64,000 nt of DNA from Pseudomonadota bacterium (GTDB taxonomy: Bacteria > Pseudomonadota > Alphaproteobacteria > RF32 > CAG-239). How positions within the stretch are numbered: position 1 is the stretch's first letter; each line of letters starts with the position of its first letter. The DNA lies in the NCBI GenBank assembly GCA_018362935.1, contig JAHALQ010000007.1, positions 512 to 64,511 of the forward strand, read 5' to 3'. Made by a program: the position numbers and the translations under genes. The notes beneath the pieces were generated by a model. The model saw only the letters and a program-made list of their open reading frames with translations, did no database searches and had not been told where the DNA came from. Shown one piece after another: positions 3,122 to 48,151 of this stretch.

Positions 3122-3132
3122 GGAGAAAAGCA

Positions 3133-4950: not shown

Positions 4951-4973
4951 ATGAGCAAAGGATGTAAAAAAAC

Positions 4974-6233
4974 GTGACACATTCGTTTAACAGAGCCACC
5001 ACTATTGCCGCCCTTGATATCGGGTCTTCCAAGGTATGCTGTGTTATTGCCAAAATGAGCCGCGACCGCAAGATTAACATTGCCGGTTACGGCTACAATG
5101 CATCCAAGGGTATAAAAAACGGCGTGGTGACGGATATTAACCAGGCGACACTGTCGGTCTGCAACGCGGTGGAAACGGCCGAGCAGATGGCGAATGAGCG
5201 GATTGACCGCGTGATTGTCAATATCTCCGGCGAAAAAATCAAAAGCGTGATTAAAGAATCTTCAATTACGCTCAACAAAAATCGTCCGGTTAACGAAAGC
5301 GACCTCATGAAAGTGGTCGAAAAAGGCATCCATAAAATTAATGTCGAAGGCTGCGAACTAATACACTGCCTGTCAACCAATTACCGGCTGGACGGCGGCG
5401 AAGAAATCAAGGACCCGCGCAATATATTCGGCGAAACGCTGTCGGTGGACATTCTGCTCGGATTGGTGCCGGACATCCTTTATCGCAATGTGGCAACGGT
5501 TATTGAAAACGCACATCTGGAAATTGCCGGCAAAACTTTTTCGTCCTATGCTTCGGGTCTGTCGTGCCTGGTTGATGACGAGCGCGAACTCGGCGCGACG
5601 GTGATTGACATGGGCGGCGGTACAACCTCGATTGCCAGTTTCCGGCATGGCTACCCGGTATATTTCGGCGCAATTCCGGTCGGCGGCAACAACGTTACCA
5701 ATGACATAGCCTATGGGCTGACAACGTCTTTCTCACATGCCGAACGGCTGAAAACGCTGCACGGATGCGCTTTTCTGACAACCCAGGATAATTTGGAAAC
5801 GATTAATGTTTATCCGGTCGGCGAGGAAGACGACAGCTGCATTAAACAAATTCCGCGGGCGGATTTGATAAGCATTATAACCCCGAGAATCGAAGAAACT
5901 TTTGAGATGGTCAACCGCAAACTGGCGGAAGTCGGACTGCACAACGTTTCGTCGCATCGGGTGGTGCTGACCGGCGGCGCCTCGCAACTGCCCGGCGTGC
6001 GCGAAATTGCGTCGATGGTGCTGGACAAACAGGTTCGCCTCGGGCGTCCGAAAAATATTCTGAATCTGCCTGACGAATTGTACAGCCCGGCTTTTTCGAC
6101 ATGCATCGGCATGCTGTTGTTTGTGTTGAATTCGCCCGAGCGCAAACCCGGCAAAATCGTCAATAAGCCGGCGGTTTCGGGCAACGGCGTCGGCGCGCAG
6201 ATAGCCTCATGGCTTAAGATACTTTTTTCTTAA
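4974..6233 (+). CDS. ftsA: cell division protein FtsA (actin-like ATPase)
   Basis: ALDIGSSKV and DMGGGTTS phosphate-binding motifs. The start is GTG and the gene precedes ftsZ. Confidence 0.92.
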   Translation: MTHSFNRATTIAALDIGSSKVCCVIAKMSRDRKINIAGYGYNASKGIKNGVVTDINQATLSVCNAVETAEQMANERIDRVIVNISGEKIKSVIKESSITLNKNRPVNESDLMKVVEKGIHKINVEGCELIHCLSTNYRLDGGEEIKDPRNIFGETLSVDILLGLVPDILYRNVATVIENAHLEIAGKTFSSYASGLSCLVDDERELGATVIDMGGGTTSIASFRHGYPVYFGAIPVGGNNVTNDIAYGLTTSFSHAERLKTLHGCAFLTTQDNLETINVYPVGEEDDSCIKQIPRADLISIITPRIEETFEMVNRKLAEVGLHNVSSHRVVLTGGASQLPGVREIASMVLDKQVRLGRPKNILNLPDELYSPAFSTCIGMLLFVLNSPERKPGKIVNKPAVSGNGVGAQIASWLKILFS

Positions 6234-9447: not shown

Positions 9448-12099
9448 TTAACTCTCTTTGGTTACGTCAAAAACCTTGGCAGTCAGGTCGCCGAGGCTGT
9501 ATGGTTTGGTAATAAAGTCGAAATCGTCGAAATTGTCAAGTTCCTGGCGGACAATTTCTTCGGAATAGCCCGAGGCCAGAATAACCTTGATGTTTTTGAG
9601 CCTTTCTTTGACGATTTTGGTCAGTTCGGCGCCGCTGATGCCGGGCATGACCATATCGGTTATCAGGAGGTCGAATTTATCATCTTTTTTGAGATGGTCA
9701 AGGGCGTTCTCTCCGGAATTGCAGCCGACGACGTCATAGCCTTTTTTCTTGAGCGCGCGGACGGCAAAACTGCGAACCGAATCTTCGTCTTCCACAAAAA
9801 GAATGCGAATCTGCCGGCTGTCTTTTGACGAAGCGGCATGCGAACGGTCGATGGCATTGGAAACGTTCAGACCCATAATGATTTTCTGATTTACATTCAA
9901 CGGCGCGCTGATTTTTTCCTGTACGCGCAGGATTGTCTGCCCCGCTTTGTTGGTCACAATTTCGCGGTCGTTTTCATTATCTTCTTCGGGTTTTTCTTCA
10001 AAACGCGGCAAGTGGATTGAGAATGTTGTGCCGATGCCGACGGCGCTGTCGACGGTAATATAGCCTTCGGTCTGGCGGACAATGCCGTAGACCATGGCCA
10101 GACCCAGCCCGGTACCCGAACCGACAATGTTTTCCTTGGTGGAGAAGAAGGGGTCAAAAATCCGGCTCATGTTTTCCGGCGGGATACCGCAGCCGCTGTC
10201 TTTGACGTCGATAACCACAAATTCGCCGGGCTTGATTTTATCGTCGCCGAACTGGAAACTTTCTTTCAAAACATGGGTACGGGTCGAAATATACAATGTA
10301 CCGTCGCCGTTCATGGCGTCCTTGGCATTGACAGCCAGATTGATGATTACCTGCGACAGCTGTACCGGGTCGACCTTGACATAACCCAAATCCGACTGGT
10401 GATGAATTTTGAGGGTGATTTTTTCGCCCAGGATGCGTTTAAGCATGTGCGAAAGCTCGGCAAAGCTGTCGGTAATGTCAATCAGCTTAGGCTGCAAAGG
10501 CTGCTTGCGCGAAAAGGCCAGCAGCTGGCGCACGAGGCTGGCGGCACGGTTGGCATTCTGTTTGATTTGGATTAAATCTGCAAACGAAGGATCGCCGACG
10601 CCGTGACGCTGCAAGAGCAAATCGGTAAAGCCTATCATGGCGGTCAGCAAGTTGTTAAAGTCGTGCGCCACGCCGCCGGCCAGCTGTCCGACAGCCTGCA
10701 TTTTCTGCGCCTGGGCAAACTGCTGTTCCAACGAGCGCTGCTTGGTGGCGTCAATCAGGTAAAGCACAAAGCCCAAAGCTTCGCCGTTACCGGCACTGTG
10801 AAATCGTTGCATGCTGCTGACGTAAATGGTGGTAATTAAATCCGGGCGCGCCGCATTGAGGCGGATGTCCATATTGAGCGACAAAGACGGATCTGCGCGC
10901 AGCCGGGCACAGATTGCACAAAACTGTTCTTTCTCGGCGGCATTGAGCAAATCGGGCATAATCTTGCCTTTGGGGTGAGCCGCCGCGCGGGTATCAAAAA
11001 ACTTGGCGGCTGTGGCGTTGGCCTCGCCAATGATGTAATTGTCATCGGTAAAGACGATGCCGACCGGCGAATTGTTGAACAGCCAGCTGATTTTGTCCGT
11101 GGCCTGCTCCAACTCGGCTTCAAGCCGGTTGGTGCTGGGCAGGCGGCCGATAACGGCGCCGCGCATTTTGATTTTCTCGTCTTCGCGGTAGTTGTTCTGA
11201 AAAACATAGGCCTCGGCCACTTCGCCGCGGCCGGTCAGAAAATGCAGTTTTCCCTGCCATGCATCTTTCTTTTCGGGAAACAGCGAATTCGGCGCCAGAA
11301 ACTCATCCAGCGCGCGGCCGTTGAGGCTGCCTTCTTCGGCATTGAGAAATTCGGTAAAGTTGTGATTAACGTATTCAAAACGATAGTCTTTATCTACCGT
11401 GTACAGCCCAATCGGCATATAGTCGAGAAAATCATGAAGCTGGGCACATTCTTCGCGAAAAACCTGCTCCATGTTTTTTTGAGCGGTTATATTGTTAACG
11501 GCCCAGTAAAAATAAGTTTCCTTCTGTATTTTCTTAATCGAAAAAGCGCCTTCAAAAATCTGCGGTTTTTTTAGATACATCGGGCGCAGAGAAACTTCAT
11601 ACCATTCCAGCCCGTTGAATATCCGGTCGGCTTTGGAGTGCAGCGACAACGAAAGGACAACTTTCTCGGCGCTGAGGTTCTTGTGGGCGGTCTTAAGGCG
11701 CTGGAGAGCGTTTTTGTTGGTCGGACCTTCGGCCAGATTTTTTTCAAGAAAACGCAATACGGCATTTTGTTTAAACAGTTCTTTGGCCGGGTCGTTCTGA
11801 ATAATCGGCTCGCCTTTCGGGGTTTCGATACGTTTGGCCTTGAAGTCGCTGCGGATGATTTCATTGGCAAATCCGCCGTAACTGATGGCCGCTTCGCCGG
11901 CATCAAGCGTTTTAATTGTCAGCAGCAGGCAATAACTGGCGCAGGCGGCGCACAAAGCCACAAGATGCAGATAATAGGCAGGGTACAGGAAAAAAAGTAT
12001 AATCAGCGTTGTCAGCCCGACCAGCGAAAACGCCAGTTTGACAAGGCAGGACTGAAGCTGTTTGTCGGGTCTATTGTTGATTTTTGAGTTGCATAACAT
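9448..12099 (-). CDS. cckA: hybrid sensor histidine kinase, CckA-like
   Basis: N-terminal TM pair, PAS repeats, H-box [11 protein letters not shown], an HATPase G-boxes region and a C-terminal receiver ([11 protein letters not shown]...[11 protein letters not shown]). Confidence 0.75.
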
Positions 12100-21382: not shown

Positions 21383-24007
21383 TTAGATTTTGCCTTCATA
21401 GGCTTTGAGGTAAATTTCCTCGATTTCTTTAATCAGCGGATAGCGCGGATTGGCGCCGGTGCACTGGTCGTCAAAGGCCAGCTCCGACAATTCGCTCAAA
21501 CCTTCTTTAAAGGTTTTTTCATCAACGCCGGCTTCGCGGATAGACATCGGAATGCCGATTTCTTTTTTAAGCTGCTGAATGGCTTTGATGAGATTTTTAA
21601 CCTTTTCGTCGTCATTCTTGCCGCCGAGGCAGAGCATTTCGGCAATCTCGGCATAACGGCGTTTGGCCTCAGGGTAATGATACTGCGAGAAAATACCCTG
21701 TTTGGTCGGCTTGTCGCTGGCGTTGAAATCAATCACCTGGCAAATCAGCATGGCGTTGGCGACGCCGTGAGCAATGCCGTACGCGCTGCCCAGCTTATGT
21801 GCCAGCGAGTGGCAGATACCCAGAAAGGCCTGCGCAAAGCAGATGCCGGCCATGGTGGCGGCATAATGCATGTTCTCGCGCGCCTGCGGGTTGTTGGCAC
21901 CGTCATTGACCGATTTGGTCAGGTTGGCGAATATCATCTGTATCGCTTCTTTGGCAATACCCTGAGTGAACGGCGTGGCCAAAATGGAAACATAGGCTTC
22001 CAGCGCATGGGTCAGAGAGTCGATGCCCGAAGCCGCCGCCAGGCCGCGCGGCATGGTTTTGACCAAATCCGGGTCGATAATCGCCATGTTCGGGGTCAGG
22101 GCATAGTCGGCAATTGGATATTTGATGTGGGTATCCGAATCGGTAATGACTGCAAAAGGCGTGACTTCCGATCCGGTGCCGGAAGTGGTCGGAATGGCGA
22201 CCATCGTTGCCTTTGAGCCTAAATCCGGGAAAGTGCAGATACGTTTGCGGATATCCATAAAGCGCATGGCGAGGTCATGGAACGAAACTTCGGGATGTTC
22301 ATACATCAGCCAGACGATTTTGGCCGCGTCCATCGGCGAGCCGCCGCCCAGCGCGATAATCACGTCGGGTTCGAGGTTGCGGACAATTTTGAGCGCGTTT
22401 TCAATTGTCGCAGTGTCGGGGTCGGGGTTGACGTTGGAGAAAATCTGATAGGCGATATCGAGTTCCTCAAGCACGCTGGTGATTTTGTCGGTATAGCCCA
22501 GGCCAAACAACGGTTTGTCGGTGATGATAAAGGCTTTCTTCTTGCCTTTAAGCTCGCGCAGGGCAAAACCGGTCGCGCCCTGTTTGAAATAAATTTTGGG
22601 CGGTACTCTGAACCACAGCATGTTTTCTCTTCTTTCGGCGACTGTTTTGATGTTAACCAAATGTTTTACTCCTACGTTTTCGCTGGCCGCATTTCCGCCC
22701 CATGAGCCGCAGCCCAGCGTGAGGGAAGGGTCCAGCCTGAAATTGTACAAATCTCCGATACCGCCCTGCGAAGACGGGGTGTTAATCAGGATACGCCCGG
22801 TATCCAGCTGGCTGCTGAAATATTTGATGCGGTCCTGATTATGTTCGGCGGTGTATAAAACCGAAGTGTGCCCGCGTCCGGCAAAATGTACCAGCTCGGC
22901 GGCGTCGGAAACGGCGTCTTCAAACGAAGACGTCTTATACATGGCCAAAACCGGAGAAAGTTTTTCAAAAGAGAAGGGCTCTTCGGGGCCGATTTTGCAG
23001 ACTTCGCCGATTAAGACTTTGGTTTCCGCAGGAACTTTTATTCCGGCGAGTTCGGCAATTCTGCAGGCCGGCTGCCCGACAATGGCGGAATTGAGTTTGC
23101 CGTCCTGAATGATGGTTTGGGCAACTTTTTCTTTTTCTTTTTTATTGAGGATATATGCGCCGCGGTAAGCGAATTCTTCTTTAACGGCGTCGTAAACATC
23201 CTTGTGGACGATAACCGACTGTTCGGAAGCGCAAATCATGCCGTTGTCAAAAGTTTTGCTCATCAGTACTGAGCTGACGGCCATCTTGATGTCGGTGGTT
23301 TCATCAATAATTGCGGGTGTGTTGCCGGCGCCGACGCCAAGAGCCGGTTTTCCGGAGCTGTATGCCGCCTTGACCATGCCGGGGCCGCCGGTAGCAAGAA
23401 TCATGGCAATGCCTTCGTGTCCCATAAGGTGCTGGGTCAAATCAATGGAGGGTTCGTCAATCCAGCCGATGATGTGTTCGGGCGCGCCGGCTTTGACGGC
23501 GGCGTCCAAAAGCAGTTTGGCCGTGTATACGGTCGATTTTTTGGCACGGGGATGAGGTGAAAAAATGATGCCGTTGCGGGTTTTGAGCGCAATCAGGGTT
23601 TTGAAAATGGTCGTTGATGTCGGGTTGGTTGTCGGGATGACGCCGGCTATGACGCCAATCGGTTCGGCGACTTTGGTATAGCCGTTGGTCGCATCGTGCT
23701 CAATAACGCCGCAGGTGCGGGCATCGCGGTATTTGTTATAGATTTCTTCGGCGGCAAAATGGTTTTTTATGACTTTGTCTTCAACAATGCCCATGCCGGT
23801 TTCTTCCACCGCCATTTTGGCAAGCGGAATGCGGGCGTCGTTGGCAGCCAGCGCGACAGCTGCAAAAATTTTGTCGACTTGTTCCTGCGAATAGGCGGCA
23901 AAAACTTCCTGCGCGGTTTTAACGCGGTCGATTACAACGTTCAAATCATCAATTGTCGAGGTTTCCCCATACGTTTCGGCTTGCGGGCCTTCTTTTTTCA
24001 GTTTCAT
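21383..24007 (-). CDS. adhE: bifunctional acetaldehyde-CoA/alcohol dehydrogenase AdhE
   Basis: About 874 aa with an N-terminal aldehyde dehydrogenase half and a C-terminal Fe-ADH half (GGGSPMDAAK, histidine-rich metal site). The start is at MKLKK after AGGAGATG. Confidence 0.93.
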   Translation of the reverse strand: MKLKKEGPQAETYGETSTIDDLNVVIDRVKTAQEVFAAYSQEQVDKIFAAVALAANDARIPLAKMAVEETGMGIVEDKVIKNHFAAEEIYNKYRDARTCGVIEHDATNGYTKVAEPIGVIAGVIPTTNPTSTTIFKTLIALKTRNGIIFSPHPRAKKSTVYTAKLLLDAAVKAGAPEHIIGWIDEPSIDLTQHLMGHEGIAMILATGGPGMVKAAYSSGKPALGVGAGNTPAIIDETTDIKMAVSSVLMSKTFDNGMICASEQSVIVHKDVYDAVKEEFAYRGAYILNKKEKEKVAQTIIQDGKLNSAIVGQPACRIAELAGIKVPAETKVLIGEVCKIGPEEPFSFEKLSPVLAMYKTSSFEDAVSDAAELVHFAGRGHTSVLYTAEHNQDRIKYFSSQLDTGRILINTPSSQGGIGDLYNFRLDPSLTLGCGSWGGNAASENVGVKHLVNIKTVAERRENMLWFRVPPKIYFKQGATGFALRELKGKKKAFIITDKPLFGLGYTDKITSVLEELDIAYQIFSNVNPDPDTATIENALKIVRNLEPDVIIALGGGSPMDAAKIVWLMYEHPEVSFHDLAMRFMDIRKRICTFPDLGSKATMVAIPTTSGTGSEVTPFAVITDSDTHIKYPIADYALTPNMAIIDPDLVKTMPRGLAAASGIDSLTHALEAYVSILATPFTQGIAKEAIQMIFANLTKSVNDGANNPQARENMHYAATMAGICFAQAFLGICHSLAHKLGSAYGIAHGVANAMLICQVIDFNASDKPTKQGIFSQYHYPEAKRRYAEIAEMLCLGGKNDDEKVKNLIKAIQQLKKEIGIPMSIREAGVDEKTFKEGLSELSELAFDDQCTGANPRYPLIKEIEEIYLKAYEGKI

Positions 24008-24091
24008 ATTTTCATCTCCTAAATGTGCCCGAATCAGCCGGGGCACAAAACATTACTACCCTATCATGAAAATACAAAAGAATGGTTAATA

Positions 24092-32030: not shown

Positions 32031-32174
32031 TCAATCTGCCACGATGACGCAAGTTTATGTCAGCGGCGGCGTTTTAAAATGCTGCTGCTTCAGACGAGGC
32101 GTTTTTTGCGGGTGCGGACTGGAAAAGTTTTAAACAAAGCTTATCTATCTGGAAAATATCAGAGAGAGGTAACC

Positions 32175-33653
32175 ATGGATAATGACAGTAACAAAATCGG
32201 CGTGGTTCCGGCAACTTTGCTGGTCGCCGGAAATATGATGGGATCGGGCGTGTTTATGCTGCCGGCGAATCTGGCGGCTATCGGGTCAATTGCGGTGCTG
32301 GGCTGGCTGGTAACAATCGTCGGCGCCATAGCTTTGGCGCTGGTGTTTTCCAAACTGACACAAATCTATACCGCGGCGGGCGGCCCGTATGCCTATACGC
32401 GCAAAGCATTCGGCGATTATATGGGGTATCAGACCAATCTGGTCTATTGGCTGGCCAATGTTATCGGCAATGTGGCGCTGGTGGTGGCCGGTCTTGGCTA
32501 TCTGACGCCGTTTTTTCCGTCCTTGCGTGATCCGCTGGTCATGGCGCTGGGGCAGATCGGCATTATCTGGCTGCTGGTTTACGCCAATATTCTGGGGCCG
32601 AAAACTGTCGGCCGGATTCAGAGCTTTACGACCATGCTGGCTCTGGTACCGATTATCGGCGTGGCGTTGCTCGGGTGGTTCTGGTTCCATCCGCAGACCT
32701 TTATGGAGGGGTGGAACGTTTCGGGCAGCAGCGACGTTTCAGCTTTGGGGATGACGCTTAATTTTACACTGTGGGCATTTATCGGCGTTGAGAGCGCTTC
32801 GGTGTCGACAGCCGTGGTTAAAGATCCGGCCAAAAACGTGCCGATTGCGACGGTGGTCGGTGTTCTGTTGGCGGCTGCTTGCTATATTCTCAGTTCTTCG
32901 GCAATTATGGGTATTATTCCCAATAAAGAGCTGATTGTTTCAGCCGCGCCGTTTTCAGACGCCGTGACGGTTGCCTTGGGGCCCGCAGCCGGAAAAATTG
33001 TCGCTTTTTGTGCGGCGGCGGGCTGCCTCGGGTCACTCGGCGGCTGGACGCTGCTGGTCGGGCAGACGGCGCAGGCTGCGGCGAATGACGGTTTGTTCGG
33101 CAACGTGTTTGCCAAAGTCAACAACCGCTGTGTTCCGTCGGCCGGTTTGGCGATTGTGGCGGGGTTGATGACGCTTCAGGTTTTGGCGACGATGTCGCCG
33201 ACAGCTGCGGAGCAATTCGGCAAAATTGCTTCCATTGCAGTAATCATGACGCTGCTGCCGTATATTTATTCATCCGTTGCGATTAAAATTCTCGGGCGCG
33301 ACAAAATGAACCGGCACCAGCTGACTTTCTATACGATTGTCGGCCTGATTGCTGCGGTCTACTGCATGATTGCGATGATCGGTTCGGACGCGCAGCAGAC
33401 CCGGTGGGCGCTGATGTTTGTGATTTCGACAATCATTTTTTACGAAATGGCGGTCAACCGCAAGCTGGATATGCAAGAGCAAAATACCCGCCCCGGCGGC
33501 TGCGTGCCCTGCTGGGTCAGACATCTGACGCTGATTGTGACAATTGTGGCTTTGGCCGCGATGTTCTGGGTTTCGGTCGGGCGTTATGACAAAGGGGATT
33601 TGCGAACACGCGGTTCGTATCACCGGATTGTACAGGAATTACACGATAAATAA
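32175..33653 (+). CDS. adiC: arginine:agmatine antiporter (APC family)
   Basis: Near-colinear resemblance to recalled E. coli AdiC (KIGVVPATLLVAGNMMGSGVFMLPANLA..., GVESASV, CAAAGCLGSLGGWTLL). RBS is GAGAGAGG. Confidence 0.85.
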   Translation: MDNDSNKIGVVPATLLVAGNMMGSGVFMLPANLAAIGSIAVLGWLVTIVGAIALALVFSKLTQIYTAAGGPYAYTRKAFGDYMGYQTNLVYWLANVIGNVALVVAGLGYLTPFFPSLRDPLVMALGQIGIIWLLVYANILGPKTVGRIQSFTTMLALVPIIGVALLGWFWFHPQTFMEGWNVSGSSDVSALGMTLNFTLWAFIGVESASVSTAVVKDPAKNVPIATVVGVLLAAACYILSSSAIMGIIPNKELIVSAAPFSDAVTVALGPAAGKIVAFCAAAGCLGSLGGWTLLVGQTAQAAANDGLFGNVFAKVNNRCVPSAGLAIVAGLMTLQVLATMSPTAAEQFGKIASIAVIMTLLPYIYSSVAIKILGRDKMNRHQLTFYTIVGLIAAVYCMIAMIGSDAQQTRWALMFVISTIIFYEMAVNRKLDMQEQNTRPGGCVPCWVRHLTLIVTIVALAAMFWVSVGRYDKGDLRTRGSYHRIVQELHDK

Positions 33654-33661
33654 AGGAGAAA

Positions 33662-35962
33662 ATGATGACAGAGGAAAAAAATCCGCTGGGTTTTAAGGTA
33701 CTGATGATTTATGACGGGGTTGATGAAAATAACGCCAATGCCCGTAAAATTCAGGCATTGAAGAGCGACCTGGAAGAAAAAGACATACAAGTTGTTATTG
33801 CCCAGTGTTATAATGACGCGGCGGCGGTTATCCGCTCCGACCCGACAGTGGAATGCGTGCTGCTGAATTTAGATGACGATCCGGATCATCATTTCGGGCA
33901 CAGCGTACGCATGCTCAAACTTATCCGCAGCCGCAACGAAAACGTACCGGTTTTCCTGCTGGCGTGCCGGACGGTAGCGTCGGGCGTTCCGGCGGATATT
34001 CTTGACAAAGTCAATGACTTTATCTGGATTTTGGAAGATACGTCTGATTTTATCGCCGGGCGCATTGTTGCGGCCATCAGGCGGTATCGCGAGTATATTC
34101 TGCCGCCGATGTTTAAGGCTTTGGTTAATTTTTCAAAGGTGCATGAGTATTCATGGCACACGCCGGGGCATACCGGCGGCACCGCTTTTTTGAAGTCGGC
34201 GGTCGGGCGTTCGTTTTTTAATTTTTTCAAAGAACCGGTCTTCCGGTCGGATTTGTCAATTTCGGTGGGCGAGCTTGGGTCATTGCTTGACCATTCCGGC
34301 CCTATCGGCGAAAGCGAAAAATATATCAGCCGCGTTTTCGGTTCCGACCGCAGCTATACGGTAACCAACGGTTCGTCGACATCCAACCGGGTAATTTTAA
34401 TGTCGAGCGTGACCCGCAATCAGGTGGCGCTGGTTGACCGCAACTGCCATAAATCGGTGGAGCAGGGGCTGACGATGTGCGGCGCGGTGCCGTCGTATCT
34501 GATTCCTTCGCGCAACCAGTACGGCATTATCGGCCCGATTAAGCCCGAGCGTCTGACGAAGGAAGCCGTGGCGCAGAGCGTTTCGGAAAATGCCCTGGTC
34601 AAAGACGGCGTGAACAAGCAGCCGGTGCATGCGGTGGTTACCAATTCGACCTATGACGGTTTGTGCTATAATATCAACCGGGTAAAAGAACTGCTGGGCG
34701 AGAGCGTCGACCGGCTGCATTTTGACGAGGCGTGGTACGGCTATGCCCGGTTTAATCCGCTTTACTGCGAACGTTTTGCCATGTGCGGGGATATCACCGA
34801 ATATGACCGCAGCGGCCCGACGGTCTTTTCGACGCAGTCGACCCACAAACTGCTGGCGGCTTTTTCGCAGGCCTCGATGATTCATATCCGCGAGGGGCGC
34901 AAGCCGATTGACCATAAGCGTTTTAACGAATCTTTCATGATGCATGCCTCGACTTCGCCGTTTTATCCGATTATCGCGACAAATGACATCAGTGCGGCAA
35001 TGATGGACGGCCCGCAGGGGCAGGCGCTGACCGAAGACAGCATCCGGGAAGCCATCGCTTTCAGGCAGACCGTGGCGCATCTGCACGCAGAAATGAAAGA
35101 CAAAGGCGACTGGTTTTTCGATATTTGGCAGCCGGATTATGTCCTTGATGCCAAGAGCGGGCAGAAAGTGCCGTTCTATGAGGCAGAGGAAGAACAGCTG
35201 GCCAATGACCCGTCAGCCTGGTATCTGCGCCCGAATGACGAATGGCACGGTTTCGGGGATATTGAGGAAGGCTATTGCATGCTCGACCCGATAAAAGTAA
35301 CCGTCGTCACACCGGGCATGGGCAAAGATGCCGTTTTGGAAGGTTCTGGAATTCCGGCCGCGCTGCTGACTTCTTATCTGGATAACCGCGGCATTGTGGT
35401 GGAAAAAACGCAGGATTTTACGGTGCTGTTTTTGTTTTCTCTCGGTGTTACCAAGGGAAAATGGGGGACGCTGCTCAACGCTTTGTTTGCTTTTAAGAAA
35501 GATTATGACAACAATACCCCGCTGGAAAGGGTGCTGCCGAAAGTCGTTGCCGACAATCCCGAGCGTTATCTGAACATGGGGCTGAAAGATTTGGCCGACG
35601 AAATGTTTGCCAAGATGAAGGAACTGCAAATGACCAAGGCGCTGGCCGAAGGTTTTGCGGTATTGCCCAAACCGGATATGACGCCGGTTGAGGCTTATGA
35701 GCAGCTGGTATTAAATAATATTGAATCGGTGACGCTTAATGAGGCATCCGGTCGGACGGTGGCAACCGGCATTGTGCCTTACCCGCCCGGAATTCCGCTG
35801 CTGATGCCGGGTGAGAACGCCGGGGATGCCGACGGCCCGCTGCTGGGGTATTTGAAAGCTCTGGAAGCTTTCGACCGTTATTTTCCGGGCTTTGCGCATG
35901 ATACGCACGGCGTGGAACGCGATTCCGACGGCAATTATGAAATTATGTGCCTGAAGAGATAA
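33662..35962 (+). CDS. adiA: biodegradative (acid-inducible) arginine decarboxylase, Orn/Lys/Arg decarboxylase family
   Basis: 766 aa with a wing domain, a PLP region (STHKLL) and strong resemblance to recalled E. coli AdiA (DFIWILEDTSDFIAGR, HFDEAWYGYARFNP, PYPPGIP). Confidence 0.85.
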   Translation: MMTEEKNPLGFKVLMIYDGVDENNANARKIQALKSDLEEKDIQVVIAQCYNDAAAVIRSDPTVECVLLNLDDDPDHHFGHSVRMLKLIRSRNENVPVFLLACRTVASGVPADILDKVNDFIWILEDTSDFIAGRIVAAIRRYREYILPPMFKALVNFSKVHEYSWHTPGHTGGTAFLKSAVGRSFFNFFKEPVFRSDLSISVGELGSLLDHSGPIGESEKYISRVFGSDRSYTVTNGSSTSNRVILMSSVTRNQVALVDRNCHKSVEQGLTMCGAVPSYLIPSRNQYGIIGPIKPERLTKEAVAQSVSENALVKDGVNKQPVHAVVTNSTYDGLCYNINRVKELLGESVDRLHFDEAWYGYARFNPLYCERFAMCGDITEYDRSGPTVFSTQSTHKLLAAFSQASMIHIREGRKPIDHKRFNESFMMHASTSPFYPIIATNDISAAMMDGPQGQALTEDSIREAIAFRQTVAHLHAEMKDKGDWFFDIWQPDYVLDAKSGQKVPFYEAEEEQLANDPSAWYLRPNDEWHGFGDIEEGYCMLDPIKVTVVTPGMGKDAVLEGSGIPAALLTSYLDNRGIVVEKTQDFTVLFLFSLGVTKGKWGTLLNALFAFKKDYDNNTPLERVLPKVVADNPERYLNMGLKDLADEMFAKMKELQMTKALAEGFAVLPKPDMTPVEAYEQLVLNNIESVTLNEASGRTVATGIVPYPPGIPLLMPGENAGDADGPLLGYLKALEAFDRYFPGFAHDTHGVERDSDGNYEIMCLKR

Positions 35963-39369: not shown

Positions 39370-39975
39370 TTAAGCTTTACAAATAGCTGCTTTAACCTGT
39401 CCGACAATGTGCAATAATTCTTCTTGCTCAATGTCCCAAGGTGCGTATTCAGCATTTAATGAGATGGCTTTTAATTTATCACCGGCAAGTTGAAGCTTTT
39501 TTATAAAACAGCTGCCATCATATTCAAAAGCATACATACCGTCATTTACAAATTGCCGTACACTCATATCCAATACAGCGATATCTTTGTCATATAGACG
39601 TGGCTGCATAGAATCACCGCGTACTTTTACACCGGCAGCAAACTTTTTCGGAATACCGTATATATCAAAAAAATCTTCAGGAAGAACTAAAGTTGAAATA
39701 ATATTTTCTTGAGAAATAATTGATCCGCAACCTGCAGAAAACTCTACGTCGTAAATATTAATTGTATTTTCGGTTTTATTAATCTGACCTGTTAATACCC
39801 AGTTAATGTCAATACCACTTTGTGCCAAGTTAGAAAGAACTTCTCCGCCTGGCAGACTGTTACCAGCCTCATAACCTTCCCAACTCTTTTTGTGGCACTT
39901 TGCTAAGATTGCCATGTTTGATTGGCTAAGTCCCAGATTTTCTCTAATTTTTTTAAGTCGCTCACCAACTGTCAT
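39370..39975 (-). CDS. prophage repressor (XRE HTH + S24 LexA-like peptidase domain)
   Basis: N-terminal HTH (LGLSQSNMAILAKC) and a C-terminal S24 pattern (VRGDSMQP...K). It is divergent from ner and A. Confidence 0.85.
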   Translation of the reverse strand: MTVGERLKKIRENLGLSQSNMAILAKCHKKSWEGYEAGNSLPGGEVLSNLAQSGIDINWVLTGQINKTENTINIYDVEFSAGCGSIISQENIISTLVLPEDFFDIYGIPKKFAAGVKVRGDSMQPRLYDKDIAVLDMSVRQFVNDGMYAFEYDGSCFIKKLQLAGDKLKAISLNAEYAPWDIEQEELLHIVGQVKAAICKA

Positions 39976-40100: not shown

Positions 40101-40304
40101 ATGTGGGATAAGGCCAGAATAAAAATTGAACTGATTAAAAGGGGTTCAAATTTTACTAAAGCCGCGCTGGATGAGGATTTATCATCCGGTGCATGCCGAA
40201 CTGCTTTAGTAAAACCTTTTCCTGCCGGCGAAAGAGCTTTGGCAAAAGCCTTAGATATCTCTGTTGAAGAGTTATTCCCGGAACGTTATCGGGAGGCTAA
40301 ATAA
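40101..40304 (+). CDS. ner: Ner-like DNA-binding early regulator
   Basis: WDKARIKIELIKRGSNFTKAALDEDLSSGACRTALVKPFPAGERALAKALDISVEELFPERY matches the recalled Ner/Nlp pattern. Confidence 0.8.
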   Translation: MWDKARIKIELIKRGSNFTKAALDEDLSSGACRTALVKPFPAGERALAKALDISVEELFPERYREAK

Positions 40305-42418
40305 TGGAAAATTATTTTAGCGCCAAACAATTAGAAGCATTACATTTGACAAGCCTGCCGTCATGCAAGCGATTGATCAATATAAAAGCGACAAAGGAAA
40401 ATTGGCCATTTCGAGCCCGCAAAGGTAAAGGTGGCGGTCGAGAATATAATATTAATGATTTACCAGCTGAAGTACGGTCTGAGTTTTTAGCTAGAAAACA
40501 AAGAAATAAAGAAGAAAAAGTTCATGAAAAGCAAGAAGAAGCAATCGCGTCTTTATTAAAACTCCAAGACGGACAGCTTCAAAAAGCTTATATTCGTGAA
40601 CGAATTGTTCAAGATTATATTATGTTTAAGAAAAGTAGCGGCTTAAGTCATACAAAAGCCAGAGCGGAGTTTTGTGCAAGTTTTAACGATAAAAAGATAC
40701 TTCCTGATAATTCTATCCGTGCCGTTGTCAATAATATTTGTGAAAGAACCTTATTTAATCTGGAAAAAAACTATGAAACAATGGGATTGGCAGGCTTAGC
40801 CGATAATTATGGCAATCGTAAAGGAGCCAGCAAGGTTGAGAGCCGCCCCGAAATTAAGGAGCTAATTTTAGGTCTAATTTATTTTAATCCGGATATTAAA
40901 TGTCACTTAATAATGCGTGGACTCCGAACAAGATACGGTTCAAAGAATCTTCCGTCTTATCGAACGATCCAGAACTGGGTTGCTAAATGGAGACATGAAA
41001 ACGAATCAGTTCTTTTGGCAATTAAAAATCCGGATGCGTGGCGGAATAAGTATCAATCGGCGACCGGTTCTCAGTCTGAAAATATTACCCGCCTTAATCA
41101 GCGTTGGGAATATGACAGTACCCCAACCGATATAATGTTAAATGATGGCAGCCGCCATAACATCGTTGGAGTGATAGACGTATATTCCCGTCGTTTGAAA
41201 TTGTTGGTTTCGAAAACGTCTAATACTCAGGCCGTAACATCCATAACCAGAGCTTGTCTTCTCGAGTGGGGTGTACCTGAAGAGGTGAAGACGGATAACG
41301 GTGCAGACTATGCATCTAAGCACATGAGAAGAGTTTTTGACAGTCTGGAAGTTCGGCAGATATTCTGTCAGCCGTTTACTCCGGAAGGCAAGCCCCATAT
41401 TGAACGAGTGTTTAAGACCTTTTCACATGATGTTTTAGAAATCCTTCCCGGATATATCGGTCATAATGTTAGTGACCGTAAAAATATTGAATCGAGAAAG
41501 TCTTTTGCCGATCATATTATGGGAAAGGCCAAAAATCGGACAGCGGAATACTTGTCTGCAGAAGAACTGCAAGAATTTTGCGATAAGTGGATTGAAAACT
41601 ATTATATGCAAGAACCGCACCGCGGATTAAATAATAAAACACCTCAGTCAATGGTAGACGGTTACAACGGTGAAGTGCGCCGGATTAAAAATGAACGGGC
41701 GCTTGATATACTGCTTTTGCCAACCAGTGGTGACGGTATTCGTACCGTTACTAAAAAAGGCATTGCAATTGAAAATGCTTATTACGACAGCAACGATTTG
41801 GGATTATATATCGGCAAGCAAGTTAAGGTTCTGTATTCTGAAGCAGAGTGGGGCAAAATATATGTATTTACTCCCGAAAGTAAATTTATTTGTGAGGCCT
41901 TTTGTCCGGAACGCAGCGGTATTTCACGTTCAGAAGTTGCTTCAGCCAAAAAGTCACTGCAAAAACGCCTTATCTCCGAGAGTAAGCAGATTATTAAAGG
42001 TTACAGCAAAAAATATATGGTCAAAAACCTTGCTCAGGAAATTGTTAATCAAAAAATTGATAACAACCCGGATATTCTCGCATTTCCTAAAACCGAAGTT
42101 TCTTATGAATCTCGTTTTTTACAAGAGGCAGAAAATATCCTGGCTTCAAAACAGGAAATGCCGGCCAGCCGTAATCTAACCGTTGAAGAACAAAATGTAC
42201 TTGAACAGGCCGAAAAAGCACGGAATGACAATGTTGTCAGCATGCCGGCGACCATTTTGTCCCAAGAAAGATACAAGCATTGGAAAGACCTTAATCAGCG
42301 TTTTCTTAAAGGTGAACGTTTAACAGAAAACGAAAGAAATTTTTATGCCAATTACAAAGAAAGTTCCGATTTTCAGACTCAAGAATTACTTGATGAACTG
42401 GGAATAGGAGCCGTGTAA
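40304..42418 (+). CDS. Mu-type DDE transposase A
   Basis: 704 aa with an N-terminal Mu-type DNA-binding region and an rve-like core (WEYDSTPTD...DVYSRR...TDNGADY...PHIERVF). Confidence 0.9.
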   Translation: MENYFSAKQLEALHLTSLPSCKRLINIKATKENWPFRARKGKGGGREYNINDLPAEVRSEFLARKQRNKEEKVHEKQEEAIASLLKLQDGQLQKAYIRERIVQDYIMFKKSSGLSHTKARAEFCASFNDKKILPDNSIRAVVNNICERTLFNLEKNYETMGLAGLADNYGNRKGASKVESRPEIKELILGLIYFNPDIKCHLIMRGLRTRYGSKNLPSYRTIQNWVAKWRHENESVLLAIKNPDAWRNKYQSATGSQSENITRLNQRWEYDSTPTDIMLNDGSRHNIVGVIDVYSRRLKLLVSKTSNTQAVTSITRACLLEWGVPEEVKTDNGADYASKHMRRVFDSLEVRQIFCQPFTPEGKPHIERVFKTFSHDVLEILPGYIGHNVSDRKNIESRKSFADHIMGKAKNRTAEYLSAEELQEFCDKWIENYYMQEPHRGLNNKTPQSMVDGYNGEVRRIKNERALDILLLPTSGDGIRTVTKKGIAIENAYYDSNDLGLYIGKQVKVLYSEAEWGKIYVFTPESKFICEAFCPERSGISRSEVASAKKSLQKRLISESKQIIKGYSKKYMVKNLAQEIVNQKIDNNPDILAFPKTEVSYESRFLQEAENILASKQEMPASRNLTVEEQNVLEQAEKARNDNVVSMPATILSQERYKHWKDLNQRFLKGERLTENERNFYANYKESSDFQTQELLDELGIGAV

Positions 42419-42527: not shown

Positions 42528-43271
42528 ATGTCAGATAATATACAAAAAGTCAATAACATCGCAGCATTACAGAATGTTGCAATCATCTTGTTAGCTATAA
42601 AAAAGGCTATGAATAGGCCGGATTATCTTCCCGGTCTTGTGGTTGTTCACGGTCCGAGCGGTTACGGTAAAACCATGGCGTCAAGCTATGCCGCAGCCAA
42701 TTTGAAAGCTTATTTCGTTTCTGCCAAGGCAATTTGGACAAGAAAAACAATGTTGCAGGCTATTCTTGACGAGATGGGAATTCCAGCAAGCAGAACAACC
42801 GCTGAAATGTTTTCTCAAGTTTGTGAAGAATTATCTTGTTCTGGCAAGCCGCTCATCATTGATGAATTTGATTATTGCGTCGATTGCAAAGGACTGATGG
42901 CGTTAACCCGTGATATATATGACAGTTCAGAGACACCTATAATTTTAATAGGTGAGGAAATGCTACCGGCTAAATTAGCACGTGAAGAGCGTTTTCATAA
43001 CCGGATTTTAGACTGGATACCGGCGTTGCCGGCAAGTTTGGAAGACGCGGTAAAACTTCGTACACTCTACTGCGATAAAGTTAAAATTGCCGATGACCTT
43101 TTACAAAAGGTTTGGCAGATATCGGAAGGCCGCGCCCGTCGAATTGTTGTTAATTTGAACAAAATTCAAGATACCATATTAGCCGAAGGCCAAAATGTTG
43201 TTGATCTTAAAGATTGGGGAAAACGTGAGCTTATTAAAGGTGAAGCTCCGGCAATCAGGAGGCTGTCATAA
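42528..43271 (+). CDS. MuB-like AAA+ transposition target-capture ATPase
   Basis: Walker A HGPSGYGKT and Walker B LIIDEFD, immediately after the transposase. Confidence 0.85.
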   Translation: MSDNIQKVNNIAALQNVAIILLAIKKAMNRPDYLPGLVVVHGPSGYGKTMASSYAAANLKAYFVSAKAIWTRKTMLQAILDEMGIPASRTTAEMFSQVCEELSCSGKPLIIDEFDYCVDCKGLMALTRDIYDSSETPIILIGEEMLPAKLAREERFHNRILDWIPALPASLEDAVKLRTLYCDKVKIADDLLQKVWQISEGRARRIVVNLNKIQDTILAEGQNVVDLKDWGKRELIKGEAPAIRRLS

Positions 43272-44501: not shown

Positions 44502-44750
44502 ATGTCAGAAACTGAAGTTGGCGGCATTGCTGCTGATCGTCTGCGTTCTCTTGTTGAGCGCATTGAACGGCTAAATGAGGAGAAAGCTGCGCTTGAAAGC
44601 GATATCCGCGATATTTTTGCAGAGGCCAAATCTGCCGGCTTTGACGTTAAAATTATACGCGAAGTTATTAGGCTGCGCAAAATGAACGCTGCCGACCGTG
44701 ATGAGCAGGAAAGTTTGCTCGAAATCTATCGTAAAGCTCTGGATATATAG
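44502..44750 (+). CDS. DUF2312/GapR-family small DNA-binding protein
   Basis: LRSLVERIERLNEEKAALESDIRDIFAEAKSAGFDVKIIREVIRLRK is the classic DUF2312 pattern. Confidence 0.8.
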   Translation: MSETEVGGIAADRLRSLVERIERLNEEKAALESDIRDIFAEAKSAGFDVKIIREVIRLRKMNAADRDEQESLLEIYRKALDI

Positions 44751-44759: not shown

Positions 44760-45398
44760 ATGACAGAAATAAACGAAAACGAATACCTAACCGACGCTGA
44801 AGGTCGTTTGGTACCGATTAAAATGATTAAAGATATCGACCGGCAACGCGACAATCTGGTGAAAGAATATATAGCTAAGGCAAAAGCTTTGTCTGCCAGT
44901 ATTCAGCGTTTCAAAACCGAGAGCTTTAACGATGTGGCTGCGCATATCAGTTTGGCTGCCGAAAAATATAATCTCAAAATAGGCGGGGAAAAAGGAAATG
45001 TGACGCTGATGAGTTATGACGGGCAGTATAAAATAATCCGTTCAGTCGCTGAAAAGCTTGATTTTAACGAAAGTCTGGCCGCCGCTAAGATTATGATTGA
45101 TAATTGTATCAGCAAATGGTCTGCCGGCGTTAATCAGCATCTGAAGGCCCTGGTAACCAGAACTTTCAAAACTGACCGCGAAGGCAAGATTTCAACGGTT
45201 AAGGTTCTGGATCTGATGACGGTTAAAATTAATGATGACGAGTGGCAAATGGCGATGCAGGCCTTGTCGGACAGTATGTCGGTCAGTTCTACCAAATCAT
45301 ATATTCGGTTTTACGAACGTCAGGTTGACGGCAGCTATAAGGCCATACCTCTGGACATTGCTGCCGATTTTCAGATTTCGCCGGCTAACTCCAAATAA
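44760..45398 (+). CDS. DUF3164-like Mu-type early protein
   Basis: Size, position and sequence are reminiscent of the DUF3164 proteins of Mu-like prophages (from memory). Confidence 0.5.
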   Translation: MTEINENEYLTDAEGRLVPIKMIKDIDRQRDNLVKEYIAKAKALSASIQRFKTESFNDVAAHISLAAEKYNLKIGGEKGNVTLMSYDGQYKIIRSVAEKLDFNESLAAAKIMIDNCISKWSAGVNQHLKALVTRTFKTDREGKISTVKVLDLMTVKINDDEWQMAMQALSDSMSVSSTKSYIRFYERQVDGSYKAIPLDIAADFQISPANSK

Positions 45399-45469: not shown

Positions 45470-45943
45470 ATGAGCCAGGTTAAACAAATGACAAAAAGAG
45501 AAATGACACAAGAACGCAAGATTTTACTGGGGAAGATTCACATAGCCAAGAAAGCTTTAGGTCTTGATGAAGATACCTATCGGTCAATCATTTTTGCTGC
45601 AGTTGGCAAAAACAGCGGCAAAGACTGCACAGACCGTCAGTTGCTTAAGATTGTTAAAGCCTTTGAAGCTAAAGGTTGGAAGCATCGAAAAAATCCGAAC
45701 CAATACCGCAAAGTTCCGACCGGACGGGCAGATTTGGAAAAAATCTATGCGTTATGGGGAAGGTTGCAGGATATGGGCGTTGTAAAGTCGACAAATCTGG
45801 TTGACCTGGATAAATGGGTCAGTCGGATGACCGGAGGTAAACGCAGTTCTGCTCAATTTCTTGAAGAAAGCTGGGCGCAAAAGATAATCGAGTGTCTGAA
45901 ACAATGGATCGCCCGCGAGGAAAGGAGAGGGCACAATGAATAA
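45470..45943 (+). CDS. GemA/gp16-like protein (DUF1018)
   Basis: KIHIAKKALGLDEDTYRSII...DCTDRQLLKIVKAFEAKGW pattern. Confidence 0.7.
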   Translation: MSQVKQMTKREMTQERKILLGKIHIAKKALGLDEDTYRSIIFAAVGKNSGKDCTDRQLLKIVKAFEAKGWKHRKNPNQYRKVPTGRADLEKIYALWGRLQDMGVVKSTNLVDLDKWVSRMTGGKRSSAQFLEESWAQKIIECLKQWIAREERRGHNE

Positions 45944-46364
45944 CTTTACCGGTGTTTTGGCTGACATTGAAAATGTTATCGGCACCGCCGCCACTCTCCA
46001 GCTGGTAAAAGAACGCGGCGGCACCAAAATAAATATTCCTAAAAAACCGACCGAAAAGTGTCAATTGGTTCAGATTATCGGATTGTCGTTGGCGGAAAAG
46101 CTCAGTTTGGAATTTGGATCCGGAGAAGTTTTAATTCCGATGGGGCATTTCAAAGGCATGGGCAGAAAGAAGGTCTTAGCGGCTCAGATGCTTGAACAAG
46201 GATTAAGCAGCAATAAGATTGCTGCAGAGCTGGATATTCACGAAAGAACTGTCCGGCGGGTGAAAGAAAAAAACTACTTAGGATTACCCCTCATTGAATA
46301 TATTGAAGAACAAGAAAGGAAAGAAAAAGAACATGGGAAAAGTTGTTGCCACACTCACGCTTGA
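45936..46364 (+). CDS. Mor/C-family transcriptional activator
   Basis: Mor-like N-terminus (VIGTAATLQLVKERGGTKINIPK) and a C-terminal HTH (LSSNKIAAELDIHERTVRR). Confidence 0.7.
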   Translation: MNNFTGVLADIENVIGTAATLQLVKERGGTKINIPKKPTEKCQLVQIIGLSLAEKLSLEFGSGEVLIPMGHFKGMGRKKVLAAQMLEQGLSSNKIAAELDIHERTVRRVKEKNYLGLPLIEYIEEQERKEKEHGKSCCHTHA

Positions 46365-46536
46365 GTGTTTTACGGATCATAAAGGGAATCTCGAGATGCA
46401 TTATGTATCCGATTATTCCGACCAGATAAAAGAAGAACATAAAAAAGCGTGTCAAACTATTTTTAGAATTGTCAGAGATTCGTTTGAATTTGACATTGCT
46501 ATGGCCGCGCAAACTCAAAATATCACCAGACAGTGA
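46333..46536 (+). CDS. hypothetical small protein
   Basis: 67-aa ORF overlapping the mor 3' end. Confidence 0.35.
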   Translation: MGKVVATLTLECFTDHKGNLEMHYVSDYSDQIKEEHKKACQTIFRIVRDSFEFDIAMAAQTQNITRQ

Positions 46537-46543
46537 GGAAATA

Positions 46544-46741
46544 ATGACACCAAATGATAATAATATGCCCCGCGGGCAGGTTCCGGCGACGATATTAAAA
46601 GACAGTGAGCGCCAACCCTGCGAAATCTGGACCCGTGTTATGGGCTACTTCCGCCCGCTGTCAGAGTTCAATATCGGTAAAAAATCCGAATTTTTTAGCC
46701 GAAAATATTTTAAGGAAAGTAAAACGCACAAACAAAAATAA
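46544..46741 (+). CDS. 65-aa stand-alone NrdD C-terminal glycyl-radical-motif protein
   Basis: GAGGAA RBS. CEIWTRVMGYFRPLSEFNIGKKSEFFSRKYF parallels the recalled NrdD C-terminus TRRVCGYLG...FNAGKQEEVKRR. Confidence 0.6.
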   Translation: MTPNDNNMPRGQVPATILKDSERQPCEIWTRVMGYFRPLSEFNIGKKSEFFSRKYFKESKTHKQK

Positions 46742-46786: not shown

Positions 46787-47221
46787 TTATTTACTGACCA
46801 TCATCACAACAAGATTACCAACAATATTGAACGAAAATGTTTTATCTTCAATTATAGTTTTTTGTTGAGATTTTGTAGCTGCTTCTACAAAACAATTACC
46901 AAAAAATTCGGATGCTTTTTCTGAATCGTCTACCAGTTGAGGGAGGACAATTGTTGCGTTTAGCATTGCTTCTTGCGAAAGAACTTTGTCTTTATTTGTG
47001 TCAATCGCAAACATTACGCCTTTAACGTTGTTGTTTTCTGTTGTTATCAGAACTTTTGCAAGTTCGTTCTTTGTGCCTGTGTAAGTATTGGTTTCGGGAT
47101 TAAATTCAAAGGTATAGTTACGGTCTTCCAAAAGTTTTTTAAATTCGTTGACAGCAACATCTTTTGCCCACGCATTGAAACTAAAACAAATTGAAGTAAG
47201 GAATAAGAGTATTTTTTTCAT
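46787..47221 (-). CDS. secreted protein encoded by a reverse-strand AT-rich moron
   Basis: GGAGG RBS and signal peptide MKKILLFLTSICFSFNAWA. It is the only minus-strand gene inside the prophage body. Confidence 0.6.
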   Translation of the reverse strand: MKKILLFLTSICFSFNAWAKDVAVNEFKKLLEDRNYTFEFNPETNTYTGTKNELAKVLITTENNNVKGVMFAIDTNKDKVLSQEAMLNATIVLPQLVDDSEKASEFFGNCFVEAATKSQQKTIIEDKTFSFNIVGNLVVMMVSK

Positions 47222-47330: not shown

Positions 47331-47498
47331 GATTACAGCGGCTTTCGCACCCGTCAGATTTGCGATTTTTTTTGTATCTGCAATGTGGCGGATGAGAGCT
47401 GAAAATATATTGAATATCAGCCAAAGCCTACTGTAATCGGCTTTTAGTGAGTCCGCCACCTCTCAAATTTGCGTGGCAATTTCTAAGAAAGATTACAG
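47331..47498. repeat. three copies of GATTACAG in the promoter region of the Rha-like gene
   Basis: Direct copies at 47331-38 and 47491-98, and an inverted copy at 47431-38. The flanking ...ATTTGCG segments are also repeated. Confidence 0.45.
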
Positions 47499-47500
47499 AT

Positions 47501-48151
47501 ATGAAAAATTTAGTTCAAATATCAAATAATAACCAGTTAACCACCACCAGTTTAAAGATTGCTGAAATATTTGGTCGGCAACATAAGCATATTTTAGAAA
47601 ATATACAACATTTTGAAATTCCAGCAGATTTTATTCAGCCGAATTTTCGGCCGATTAAATATGTTGATAAAAAGGGGCGTGAACAAAAGATGTATGAAAT
47701 CACCCGTGACGGTTTCACGCTGCTGGCGATGGGCTTCACCGGCAAAAAAGCGATGCAGTTCAAAATCGACTTTATCAAGGCTTTTAACGCGATGGAGGCG
47801 GAGCTTTTAAACCGCGCCGCTCTTAAAAAGCCCACTTTTGCCGAAACATTGCTCGGGAGTCGTGAGCTTAAAAAGGAAAATCAGGCGCAAAAAGCGCTCA
47901 TTGCCGATATGTCGGCAGAACTCTTAAAATCCCGCCCGCTTTGGTGTCGGGTGTTAAAATATAAACGGCTGGGGCTCTCGACTGCCGAGGTGGGCAAATT
48001 GGTAGGACGTTCTCGTGCTTCGGTCAAGCTCTATTGCGCCGCTTTGCGTAAATATGGCCTTCTTAATCCGTTGCCGCAACCGGCCGAACAATTGGTGCTA
48101 AATTTTAGTGCGGCGGAAACCATCCCCGGCGTTGTTTTTGCGGGAGAATAG
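47501..48151 (+). CDS. Rha-family phage regulator with C-terminal HTH extension
   Basis: NNQLTTTSLKIAEIFGRQHKHILENI is Rha-like. The C-terminal LGLSTAEVGKLVGRSRASVKLY is HTH-like. Confidence 0.65.
   Translation: MKNLVQISNNNQLTTTSLKIAEIFGRQHKHILENIQHFEIPADFIQPNFRPIKYVDKKGREQKMYEITRDGFTLLAMGFTGKKAMQFKIDFIKAFNAMEAELLNRAALKKPTFAETLLGSRELKKENQAQKALIADMSAELLKSRPLWCRVLKYKRLGLSTAEVGKLVGRSRASVKLYCAALRKYGLLNPLPQPAEQLVLNFSAAETIPGVVFAGE

Follow-up and report, generated by a model that had tools for sequence, protein, structure and literature searches.

The 65-codon open reading frame (ORF) at positions 46544 to 46741 of the window, by which we mean the whole stretch of 64,000 nucleotides of alphaproteobacterial DNA that was analysed, encodes a protein that is by sequence a member of the small-subunit family of a split class III anaerobic ribonucleotide reductase (RNR). 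The reading that we favour, and to which we give slightly better than an even chance, is that the ORF would be a functional copy, maintained by a phage, of the small glycyl-radical subunit of this two-piece enzyme, and that it would serve the enzyme of the host. This reading is built on the homology of the product to the C-terminus of the reductase protein NrdD, the splitting of NrdD in relatives of the host, the orphan status of the gene in the window, its recurrence in phages, and purifying selection under which the glycine of the radical loop has been conserved. The gene and the elements that adjoin it are the following.

46333 to 46536, + strand: 67-aa ORF upstream of the mini-subunit gene, from the gene call on Logan contig L001; without a Pfam family
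46535 to 46540, + strand: GAGGAA ribosome-binding site of the mini-subunit ORF, read from the sequence
46544 to 46741, + strand: 65-aa orphan NrdD glycyl-radical mini-subunit, MTPNDNNMPRGQVPATILKDSERQPCEIWTRVMGYFRPLSEFNIGKKSEFFSRKYFKESKTHKQK, from the ORF list, the Pfam NRDD match and the family of small homologues
46595 to 46711, + strand: conserved 39-codon core, LKDSERQPCEIWTRVMGYFRPLSEFNIGKKSEFFSRKYF, from alignment A1
46643 to 46645, + strand: GGC codon of Gly34, the predicted glycyl-radical residue in RVMGY, from the Pfam and NCBIfam matches and the Thermotoga maritima alignment
46787 to 47221, - strand: convergent 144-aa ORF with a signal-peptide-like N-terminus, MKKILLFLTSICFSFNAWA, from the ORF list; without a Pfam family

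The frame runs from an ATG at 46544 to a TAA at 46739-46741 (198 bp), and its position, its length, its translation and its GAGGAA site are all as the initial annotation had given them. Three bases separate GAGGAA from the ATG, and the site shares bases with the TGA stop (46534-46536) of the 67-aa ORF, so that the two genes look translationally coupled, in a layout typical of coupled operons; the 67-aa ORF is not conserved beside the mini-gene in other phages. Because the convergent ORF bounds the 3' side, the mini-gene is the last gene of its transcription unit. Nothing convincing was found in the way of a terminator or promoter beside the ORF. The convergent ORF itself is a possible moron, situated between the early/middle genes and a pRha-type gene at 47447-48151.

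The homology of the product to NrdD, which had been recognised by eye and was said to include the glycine of RVxGY and the FNxGK tail, is confirmed by a significant match to the Pfam family NRDD (PF13597; E=5.7e-7, 29.0 bits, gathering cut-off 26.2), in which ORF residues 23-56 are aligned with profile positions 531-562 of 562, the extreme C-terminus. Four NCBIfam equivalog models of NrdD match over their last ~30 positions, with scores far under the full-length cut-offs, as is expected for a fragment, and the profile of the family aligns weakly (E~0.2) with the C-terminus of Thermotoga maritima NrdD (4coi/4u3e, residues 617-645 of 651), the Gly34 loop RVMGY being placed opposite RIVGY. The Gly_radical family of the type found in pyruvate formate-lyase (PFL) and GrcA (PF01228 / IPR011140) gave no match to the ORF even at E<=10, NRDD being the only family reported. 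Only ~35 of ~560 profile positions are covered, and the ATP-cone, the barrel, the catalytic cysteines and the zinc ribbon are absent from the ORF, the barrel and the zinc ribbon having been recorded as missing from the outset. A PDB search with the single ORF sequence found no match, and PHROGs yielded just one weak match, to an unannotated family; the phage GenBank collection held no DNA near-identical to the ORF, and the sole tblastn matches in it were the C-termini of full-length phage NrdD genes.

Small proteins like the one in the window are nonetheless abundant. A homologue search produced 819 clusters (90% identity) of proteins of 54-113 aa, all with an NRDD match, and a profile search of 1.84 billion representatives produced 4328 50%-identity representatives at E<=1e-3 and 1075 clusters at E<=1e-10, the best 150 matches all being 54-152 aa long; these numbers are far beyond chance. 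The small-subunit family consists of proteins of 55-90 aa with the core ERQPCE[IV]WTRVMGYxRPxSxFNxGK, and the window protein is its top-scoring member, with 17 of 17 invariant positions present. All of these residues lie in the 39-codon core (E22, R23, Q24, C26, E27, W29, R31, V32, M33, G34, Y35, R37, P38, S40, N43, G45 and K46 in alignment A1), and Gly34 is invariant in 35 of the 35 relatives aligned there. Cys26 (46619-46621), in ERQPCE[IV]W, is likewise invariant across all small subunits in the alignment, and an equivalent is present in fused phage forms of NrdD (GEACEVW), right after the last CxxC of the zinc ribbon; since the first zinc pair of the large subunit is CxxH and not CxxC, Cys26 might join in metal binding or in the docking of the subunits. 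An AlphaFold2 monomer model computed from a 35-sequence alignment has a mean pLDDT of 59.9 and is helical where the hairpin loop is expected, a low-confidence result that lends no structural support; a peptide whose folding depends on its partner would be expected to give a model of this kind.

In most cellular genomes that have a member of the family, the small gene lies between nrdG and an nrdD gene for a protein of 675-698 aa with ATP-cone and NRDD domains; this order was present in 63 of 80 and in 74 of 79 genome loci in the two sets retrieved. The large nrdD ORF, in which the RVxGY loop is missing, ends just past the zinc ribbon (...FSICPKHGYISGEHKFCPLCDEE...stop), and the segment that it lacks, ERQPCE[IV]WTRVMGYxRPxSEFNxGKK, is encoded by the small ORF. 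A natural single-chain NrdD that occurs on phage contigs (L311) reads ...FSICPNHGYLAGEHFVCETCGEACEVWTRVMGYFRP..., that is, the C-terminus of the large subunit followed by the core of the small one, and because this fused protein is both parts joined, the small proteins correspond exactly to the glycyl-radical segment. The gap between the large and the small gene is 31 nt in the metagenome-assembled genome (MAG) RGIG4730, 63 nt on L003 and 142 nt in Cupriavidus necator, the reading frames vary among taxa, and the small ORFs have their own start codons and ribosome-binding sites. An origin of the split in sequencing, frameshift or assembly artefacts was considered and rejected on the strength of these varied gaps and frames and separate starts and ribosome-binding sites, together with the recurrence of the arrangement in hundreds of species. 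By the evidence of these gene sequences, class III RNR is naturally split in these lineages.

The distribution of the three-gene arrangement is wide. On the pHG1 replicon of C. necator H16 (L093, 1771-4847) it comprises H16_RS32680 (676 aa), H16_RS32675 ('nrdD', 66 aa) and the activase gene; it is also found on L003 (5874-8892), in Bradyrhizobium, in Massilia, Janthinobacterium, Castellaniella and many other Burkholderiales and Nitrosomonadales, and in gut Alphaproteobacteria. The small ORF is present on Ralstonia, Paracoccus and C. metallidurans replicons as well, and many of these copies adjoin or overlap an annotated activase or nrdD gene. Pseudomonas aeruginosa is not among the best 80 genome loci. 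The original pHG1 record lists its small ORF as 'Oxidoreductase'; RefSeq, in which both pieces of NrdD receive their names automatically, now calls it nrdD. The nrdDG genes of pHG1 are reported to be required for anaerobic growth on nitrate when B12 is not provided (PMC2864759).

The splitting of NrdD alters how the window ORF is to be understood. The initial annotation described it as a stand-alone piece of NrdD, which stands as far as homology is concerned; what does not stand is the implied fragment of a single-chain enzyme, since the NrdD of the host lineage is itself naturally in two pieces. The host, a gut alphaproteobacterium, was placed through adhE, which had been reported in the window and lies at 21383-24046 on the - strand, in flanking host DNA. 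The closest relatives of its product are from uncultured gut Alphaproteobacteria, with 95% identity in MAG RGIG4730 from roe-deer rectum and 88% in 'Proteobacteria bacterium CAG:495'. RGIG4730 has the large nrdD gene at 1962-4019, the small gene at 4051-4257 and nrdG at 4276-4974 of one contig (L182, 1962-4974), and the same arrangement is present in CAG:495 and E40_bin9. Genomes of the host clade thus encode both nrdD and nrdG, and, judging from the nearest species representative, the host itself is predicted to carry the nrdD-small-nrdG locus. The host DNA of the window also contains an amino-acid permease paired with an Orn/Lys/Arg decarboxylase (32079-35962), a typical acid-resistance module of the host, and a PAS/histidine-kinase/receiver hybrid is encoded at 9448-12099 (- strand).

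The copy in the window is not placed between a glycine-less nrdD and nrdG, and no similarity to the large NrdD or to NrdG was detected anywhere in the 64 kb; it is an orphan in a prophage, whose genes to the left of the mini-subunit gene are the following.

39370 to 39975, - strand: S24-peptidase/HTH repressor at the left prophage end (Peptidase_S24 and HTH_19)
40304 to 42418, + strand: Mu-type transposase A (HTH_Tnp_Mu_1, rve and Mu-transpos_C domains)
42528 to 43271, + strand: MuB-like AAA+ transposition ATPase (AAA_22/TniB matches)
44502 to 44750: GapR-like DNA-binding protein (PF10073, E=3e-32)
44760 to 45398: DUF3164 protein, from the prophage gene table
45470 to 45943, + strand: GemA homologue (PF06252, E=1.8e-26)
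45936 to 46364, + strand: HTH regulator in the Mor position (HTH_23/GerE matches; synteny with L002 and L255-L258)

Transposase A, the B-type ATPase, GemA, the Mu portal and Mu F occur in conserved order, so the element is a Mu-like transposable prophage, and the temperate phage that had been proposed is borne out by a gene set identified with Pfam. The GemA-Mor block is syntenic with that of a mouse-gut prophage (L002), in which the counterpart of the GapR-like protein is 80% identical, and with Mu-like contigs from IMG/VR (L255-L258). The mini-subunit gene stands at the end of this same-strand early/middle (GemA/Mor) block, and the lysis genes and Mu-type head genes lie beyond the 46787-47221 ORF. 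The visible part of the prophage contains no RNR genes. Mu is not known to degrade host DNA and is therefore dependent on de novo synthesis of dNTPs by the host.

The core of the phage protein is 77-85% identical to those of the host-clade small subunits, and the 17 family-invariant residues, including Gly34, are kept. The two types differ outside the core. The small subunits that the operons of the host clade encode (L175-L254) end in ...[IV]AAE in all 77 cases, with a CxC motif just before the end in 35, and this tail is found neither in the window protein nor in its relatives of the phage type (0 of 46), which are marked by the signature RPLSEFN. The absence of the tail indicates that the phage type is a diverged lineage and not a simple copy; such a protein may be regulated, may be bound or may behave differently from the host subunit. 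The operon copies of betaproteobacteria are also without the AAE tail, so function does not in general depend on it.

These differences bear on the question, posed when the ORF was first described, of whether the protein is a spare part or a decoy. As a decoy, or dominant-negative inhibitor, the phage peptide would bind the host NrdG or the large subunit non-productively and lower class III RNR activity, which could, for instance, halt replication of the host or keep rival phages out. The main support for such a function is the lack of the tail that is invariant in the host clade, to which can be added the conserved N-terminus peculiar to the phage type, NDxNMPxGQI, as a sign that the copies are not interchangeable; conservation of the binding core would be needed by a decoy likewise. 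The betaproteobacterial operon copies, however, are equally tail-less, a shutdown of RNR would harm a Mu-like phage which uses host dNTPs and has no RNR of its own in the visible part of the prophage, and the glycine and all of the invariant residues are retained in nearly all viral orphans, although a pure blocker could lose the glycine. We consider a decoy improbable. Since a divided NrdD is the natural state both of the host lineage and of hundreds of further species, the phage gene is a paralogue, in orphan position, of a gene for a normal enzyme subunit, and for a protein of this descent a role as replacement or extra radical subunit is mechanistically simple, which makes the decoy the weaker option. 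The most likely function is to provide the large NrdD of the host with an additional or substitute radical subunit, activated by the host's NrdG; of the two roles originally proposed, it is thus the first that is preferred.

The survey of viral relatives demonstrates that the orphan state is common. The proteins most similar to that of the window, with identities of up to 87%, have in common both RPLSEFN and NDxNMPxGQI, and the members of this group for which context is available occupy the same slot in Mu-like prophages (L002/L013, L255-L258). More broadly, relatives were found on 83 viral contigs in IMG/VR, 80 of which were retrieved for context. The small ORF has no nrdD or nrdG detected in the surrounding DNA (up to 10 kb on each side) on 56 of the 80, and five of these 56 orphans are Mu-like; RVMGY is kept in nearly all. 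A fused full-length NrdD is encoded on 18 of the 80, mostly with a recognisable adjoining nrdG, and the other 6 have a separate small ORF with the large nrdD and/or nrdG elsewhere in the locus (adjacent in 5). Some Mu-like phages encode the mini-subunit with a C-terminal extension of ~50-65 aa, for a total of 113-130 aa (L257, 9968-10360; protein P0059).

Orphans also occur in other prophage positions in bacterial genomes, one adjoining a phage integrase (L045) and two following phage lysozyme or lysis genes (L046, L053), and in the genome UBA6411 one copy lies in the operon (L065) and another in a prophage (L053), their cores being 90% identical. In the prophage of L046 a reverse transcriptase (RVT_1, 3798-4910), which may belong to a diversity-generating retroelement, is encoded upstream of the lysis genes. 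The moron-like positions of these copies, and the coexistence of two such similar cores in UBA6411, would suit a function in lysogenic conversion, in which low-level production of the phage radical subunit would speed the recovery of the lysogen's class III RNR after exposure to oxygen in the gut. The gene in the window and the other Mu-like copies, on the other hand, belong to the early/middle unit, where they come after GemA and the Mor-position regulator; a separate promoter for the mini-subunit gene was looked for and not found, and the early/middle unit of Mu is repressed in the lysogen. A benefit to the lysogen is accordingly regarded as unlikely for this gene, and expression during lytic development remains the preferred reading.

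Whatever the timing of expression, the protein sequence has been maintained. Among seven Mu-like copies the 39-codon core has a pN of 0.05-0.22 against a pS of 0.54-1.0, at which synonymous sites are saturated. The core is under strong purifying selection, which argues that the ORF is translated, as had been supposed. A few viral copies are disrupted, two by an in-frame stop within the core (L286 and L289 from IMG/VR, around 10001-10135, TRL*RCMGY) and two by truncation or degeneration (L333 and L334), which may reflect either decay of the copies or errors in sequencing.

Chromosomal orphans form a further group. In L047 (6007-8398), L068 and L079 the small gene is situated between atpC and the gene for a conserved protein of 630-679 aa, with clpB next in line in L047 and L068. 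The 630-679 aa neighbour has no Pfam or NCBIfam match, and the possibility that its 679-aa form is a divergent NrdD was rejected, because it has neither a family match nor any similarity to NrdD.

The position of these three chromosomal genes, far from any nrd gene, raises the question of whether the peptide has been recruited to another partner or role, such as another glycyl-radical enzyme or a regulator, while the few disrupted viral copies suggest that it could be a decaying remnant. The core argues against both: it is under strongly purifying selection, and its residues, including those that are specific to NrdD and not of the PFL type, are invariant across operon and orphan copies. In addition, no neighbour is conserved beside the phage copies, and the chromosomal neighbour, as described above, resembles neither NrdD nor any known family. 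Recruitment to another role, or decay, is judged very unlikely.

The favoured explanation, a working subunit that the phage supplies to the host enzyme, can be set out as a sequence of steps. In the host lineage the enzyme is made up of a ~685-aa NrdD large subunit (with ATP-cone, catalytic barrel and zinc ribbon but without the glycine loop), a ~65-aa subunit bearing the RVMGY loop and the FNxGKK helix, and the radical-SAM activase NrdG. The Mu-like phage, which replicates with host dNTPs and has little room to spare in its capsid, would express its own 65-aa version during lytic development, from the end of the early/middle (GemA/Mor) block. The host NrdG would install the radical on Gly34 of the phage peptide, and the peptide would dock into the host large subunit and hand the radical to the active-site cysteine. 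Additional copies of the peptide would raise or restore RNR activity and so provide dNTPs for replicative transposition, at a cost of only 198 bp. Glycyl-radical proteins are cleaved by oxygen at the radical glycine (PMC8683613), and since the cleavage is at this residue, a split enzyme would lose only its 7-kDa piece, and activity should return once new peptide is supplied. In this manner the phage probably supplements or replaces that part of the host's dNTP-synthesising enzyme which is sensitive to oxygen.

Several known systems resemble parts of this arrangement. Class III NrdD (PF13597; T4 and T. maritima structures) has the RVxGY loop and the FNxGK segment in common with the window ORF, which differs from it in having no catalytic domains and in its location in a prophage, away from any nrdD or nrdG. 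The operon-encoded small subunits (H16_RS32675; RGIG4730 L182 4051-4257) belong to the same family and have the same length and invariant core, with 64-85% core identity, whereas the window copy is an orphan with an N-terminus specific to the phage clade and without the ...AAE/CxC tail of the host clade. The closest functional analogy is to E. coli GrcA/YfiD and phage T4 Y06I, which are likewise small free-standing glycyl-radical domains; they are of the PFL-type Gly_radical family and ~127 aa long, however, so that the window ORF is an analogue and not a homologue. The activase of the host acts on both YfiD and Y06I, and either protein can rescue PFL that oxygen has cleaved (PMC8683613). In 2021 these two were the only validated spare parts, although the existence of others was speculated upon (PMC8683613), and in a 2026 review formate lyases were still the sole glycyl-radical enzymes with identified spare-part proteins, both sources leaving room for such parts in further enzymes of this type; the comparison with GrcA/YfiD that was drawn in the initial annotation is reasonable in the light of these reviews, in which spare parts are validated for PFL only. 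There is also a difference in mode of action, in that GrcA/YfiD and Y06I mend a cleaved single-chain enzyme, while the NrdD targeted here is already without a covalent radical domain, and for this reason the window protein would be no less an ordinary subunit than a part for repair.

A C-terminal functional module encoded by a separate adjacent gene is also seen in the split class II RNR NrdJa/NrdJb of Pseudomonas aeruginosa, which differs from split NrdD in its class and its adenosylcobalamin chemistry, and in that NrdJb is a large folded domain. We know of no phage-borne orphan copies of NrdJb. A search of the accessible literature found no paper describing a split NrdD or a free glycyl-radical protein of the NrdD type, and a large RNR phylogeny left out sequences of fewer than 400 residues, so that the small-subunit family was invisible to it. 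Class III RNR, spare-part glycyl-radical proteins and phage auxiliary metabolic genes are already known kinds; the two-piece NrdD, together with the orphan subunit borne by phages, seems to have had no earlier description or test.

The family would be the class III RNR counterpart of GrcA/YfiD and exists in two forms, as the subunit of a split enzyme and as a phage orphan. A consequence for annotation is that the 'NrdD' of split genomes has no radical site unless the small ORF is counted. Because the split form is present in genetically tractable denitrifiers and plant-associated bacteria, including C. necator H16, Paracoccus, Ralstonia and Bradyrhizobium, the question is directly testable. 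A broader proposal, which we advance tentatively and hold to have somewhat less than an even chance of being correct, is that class III RNR in much of the Proteobacteria would be a machine for repair by replacement, in which a durable catalytic subunit is combined with a cheap, disposable and separate glycyl-radical peptide, and that many kinds of phage would have captured the peptide alone as a means of controlling dNTP synthesis in the host, or of keeping it going, while oxygen levels fluctuate. If this proposal is true, these proteins would be the first spare parts, or autonomous radical cofactors, of any glycyl-radical enzyme apart from pyruvate formate-lyase, and the phage gene would be the smallest known auxiliary metabolic gene for nucleotide supply. 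With this family, phage auxiliary metabolic genes would gain a 198-bp route to the dNTP supply of the host in anoxic habitats such as the gut.
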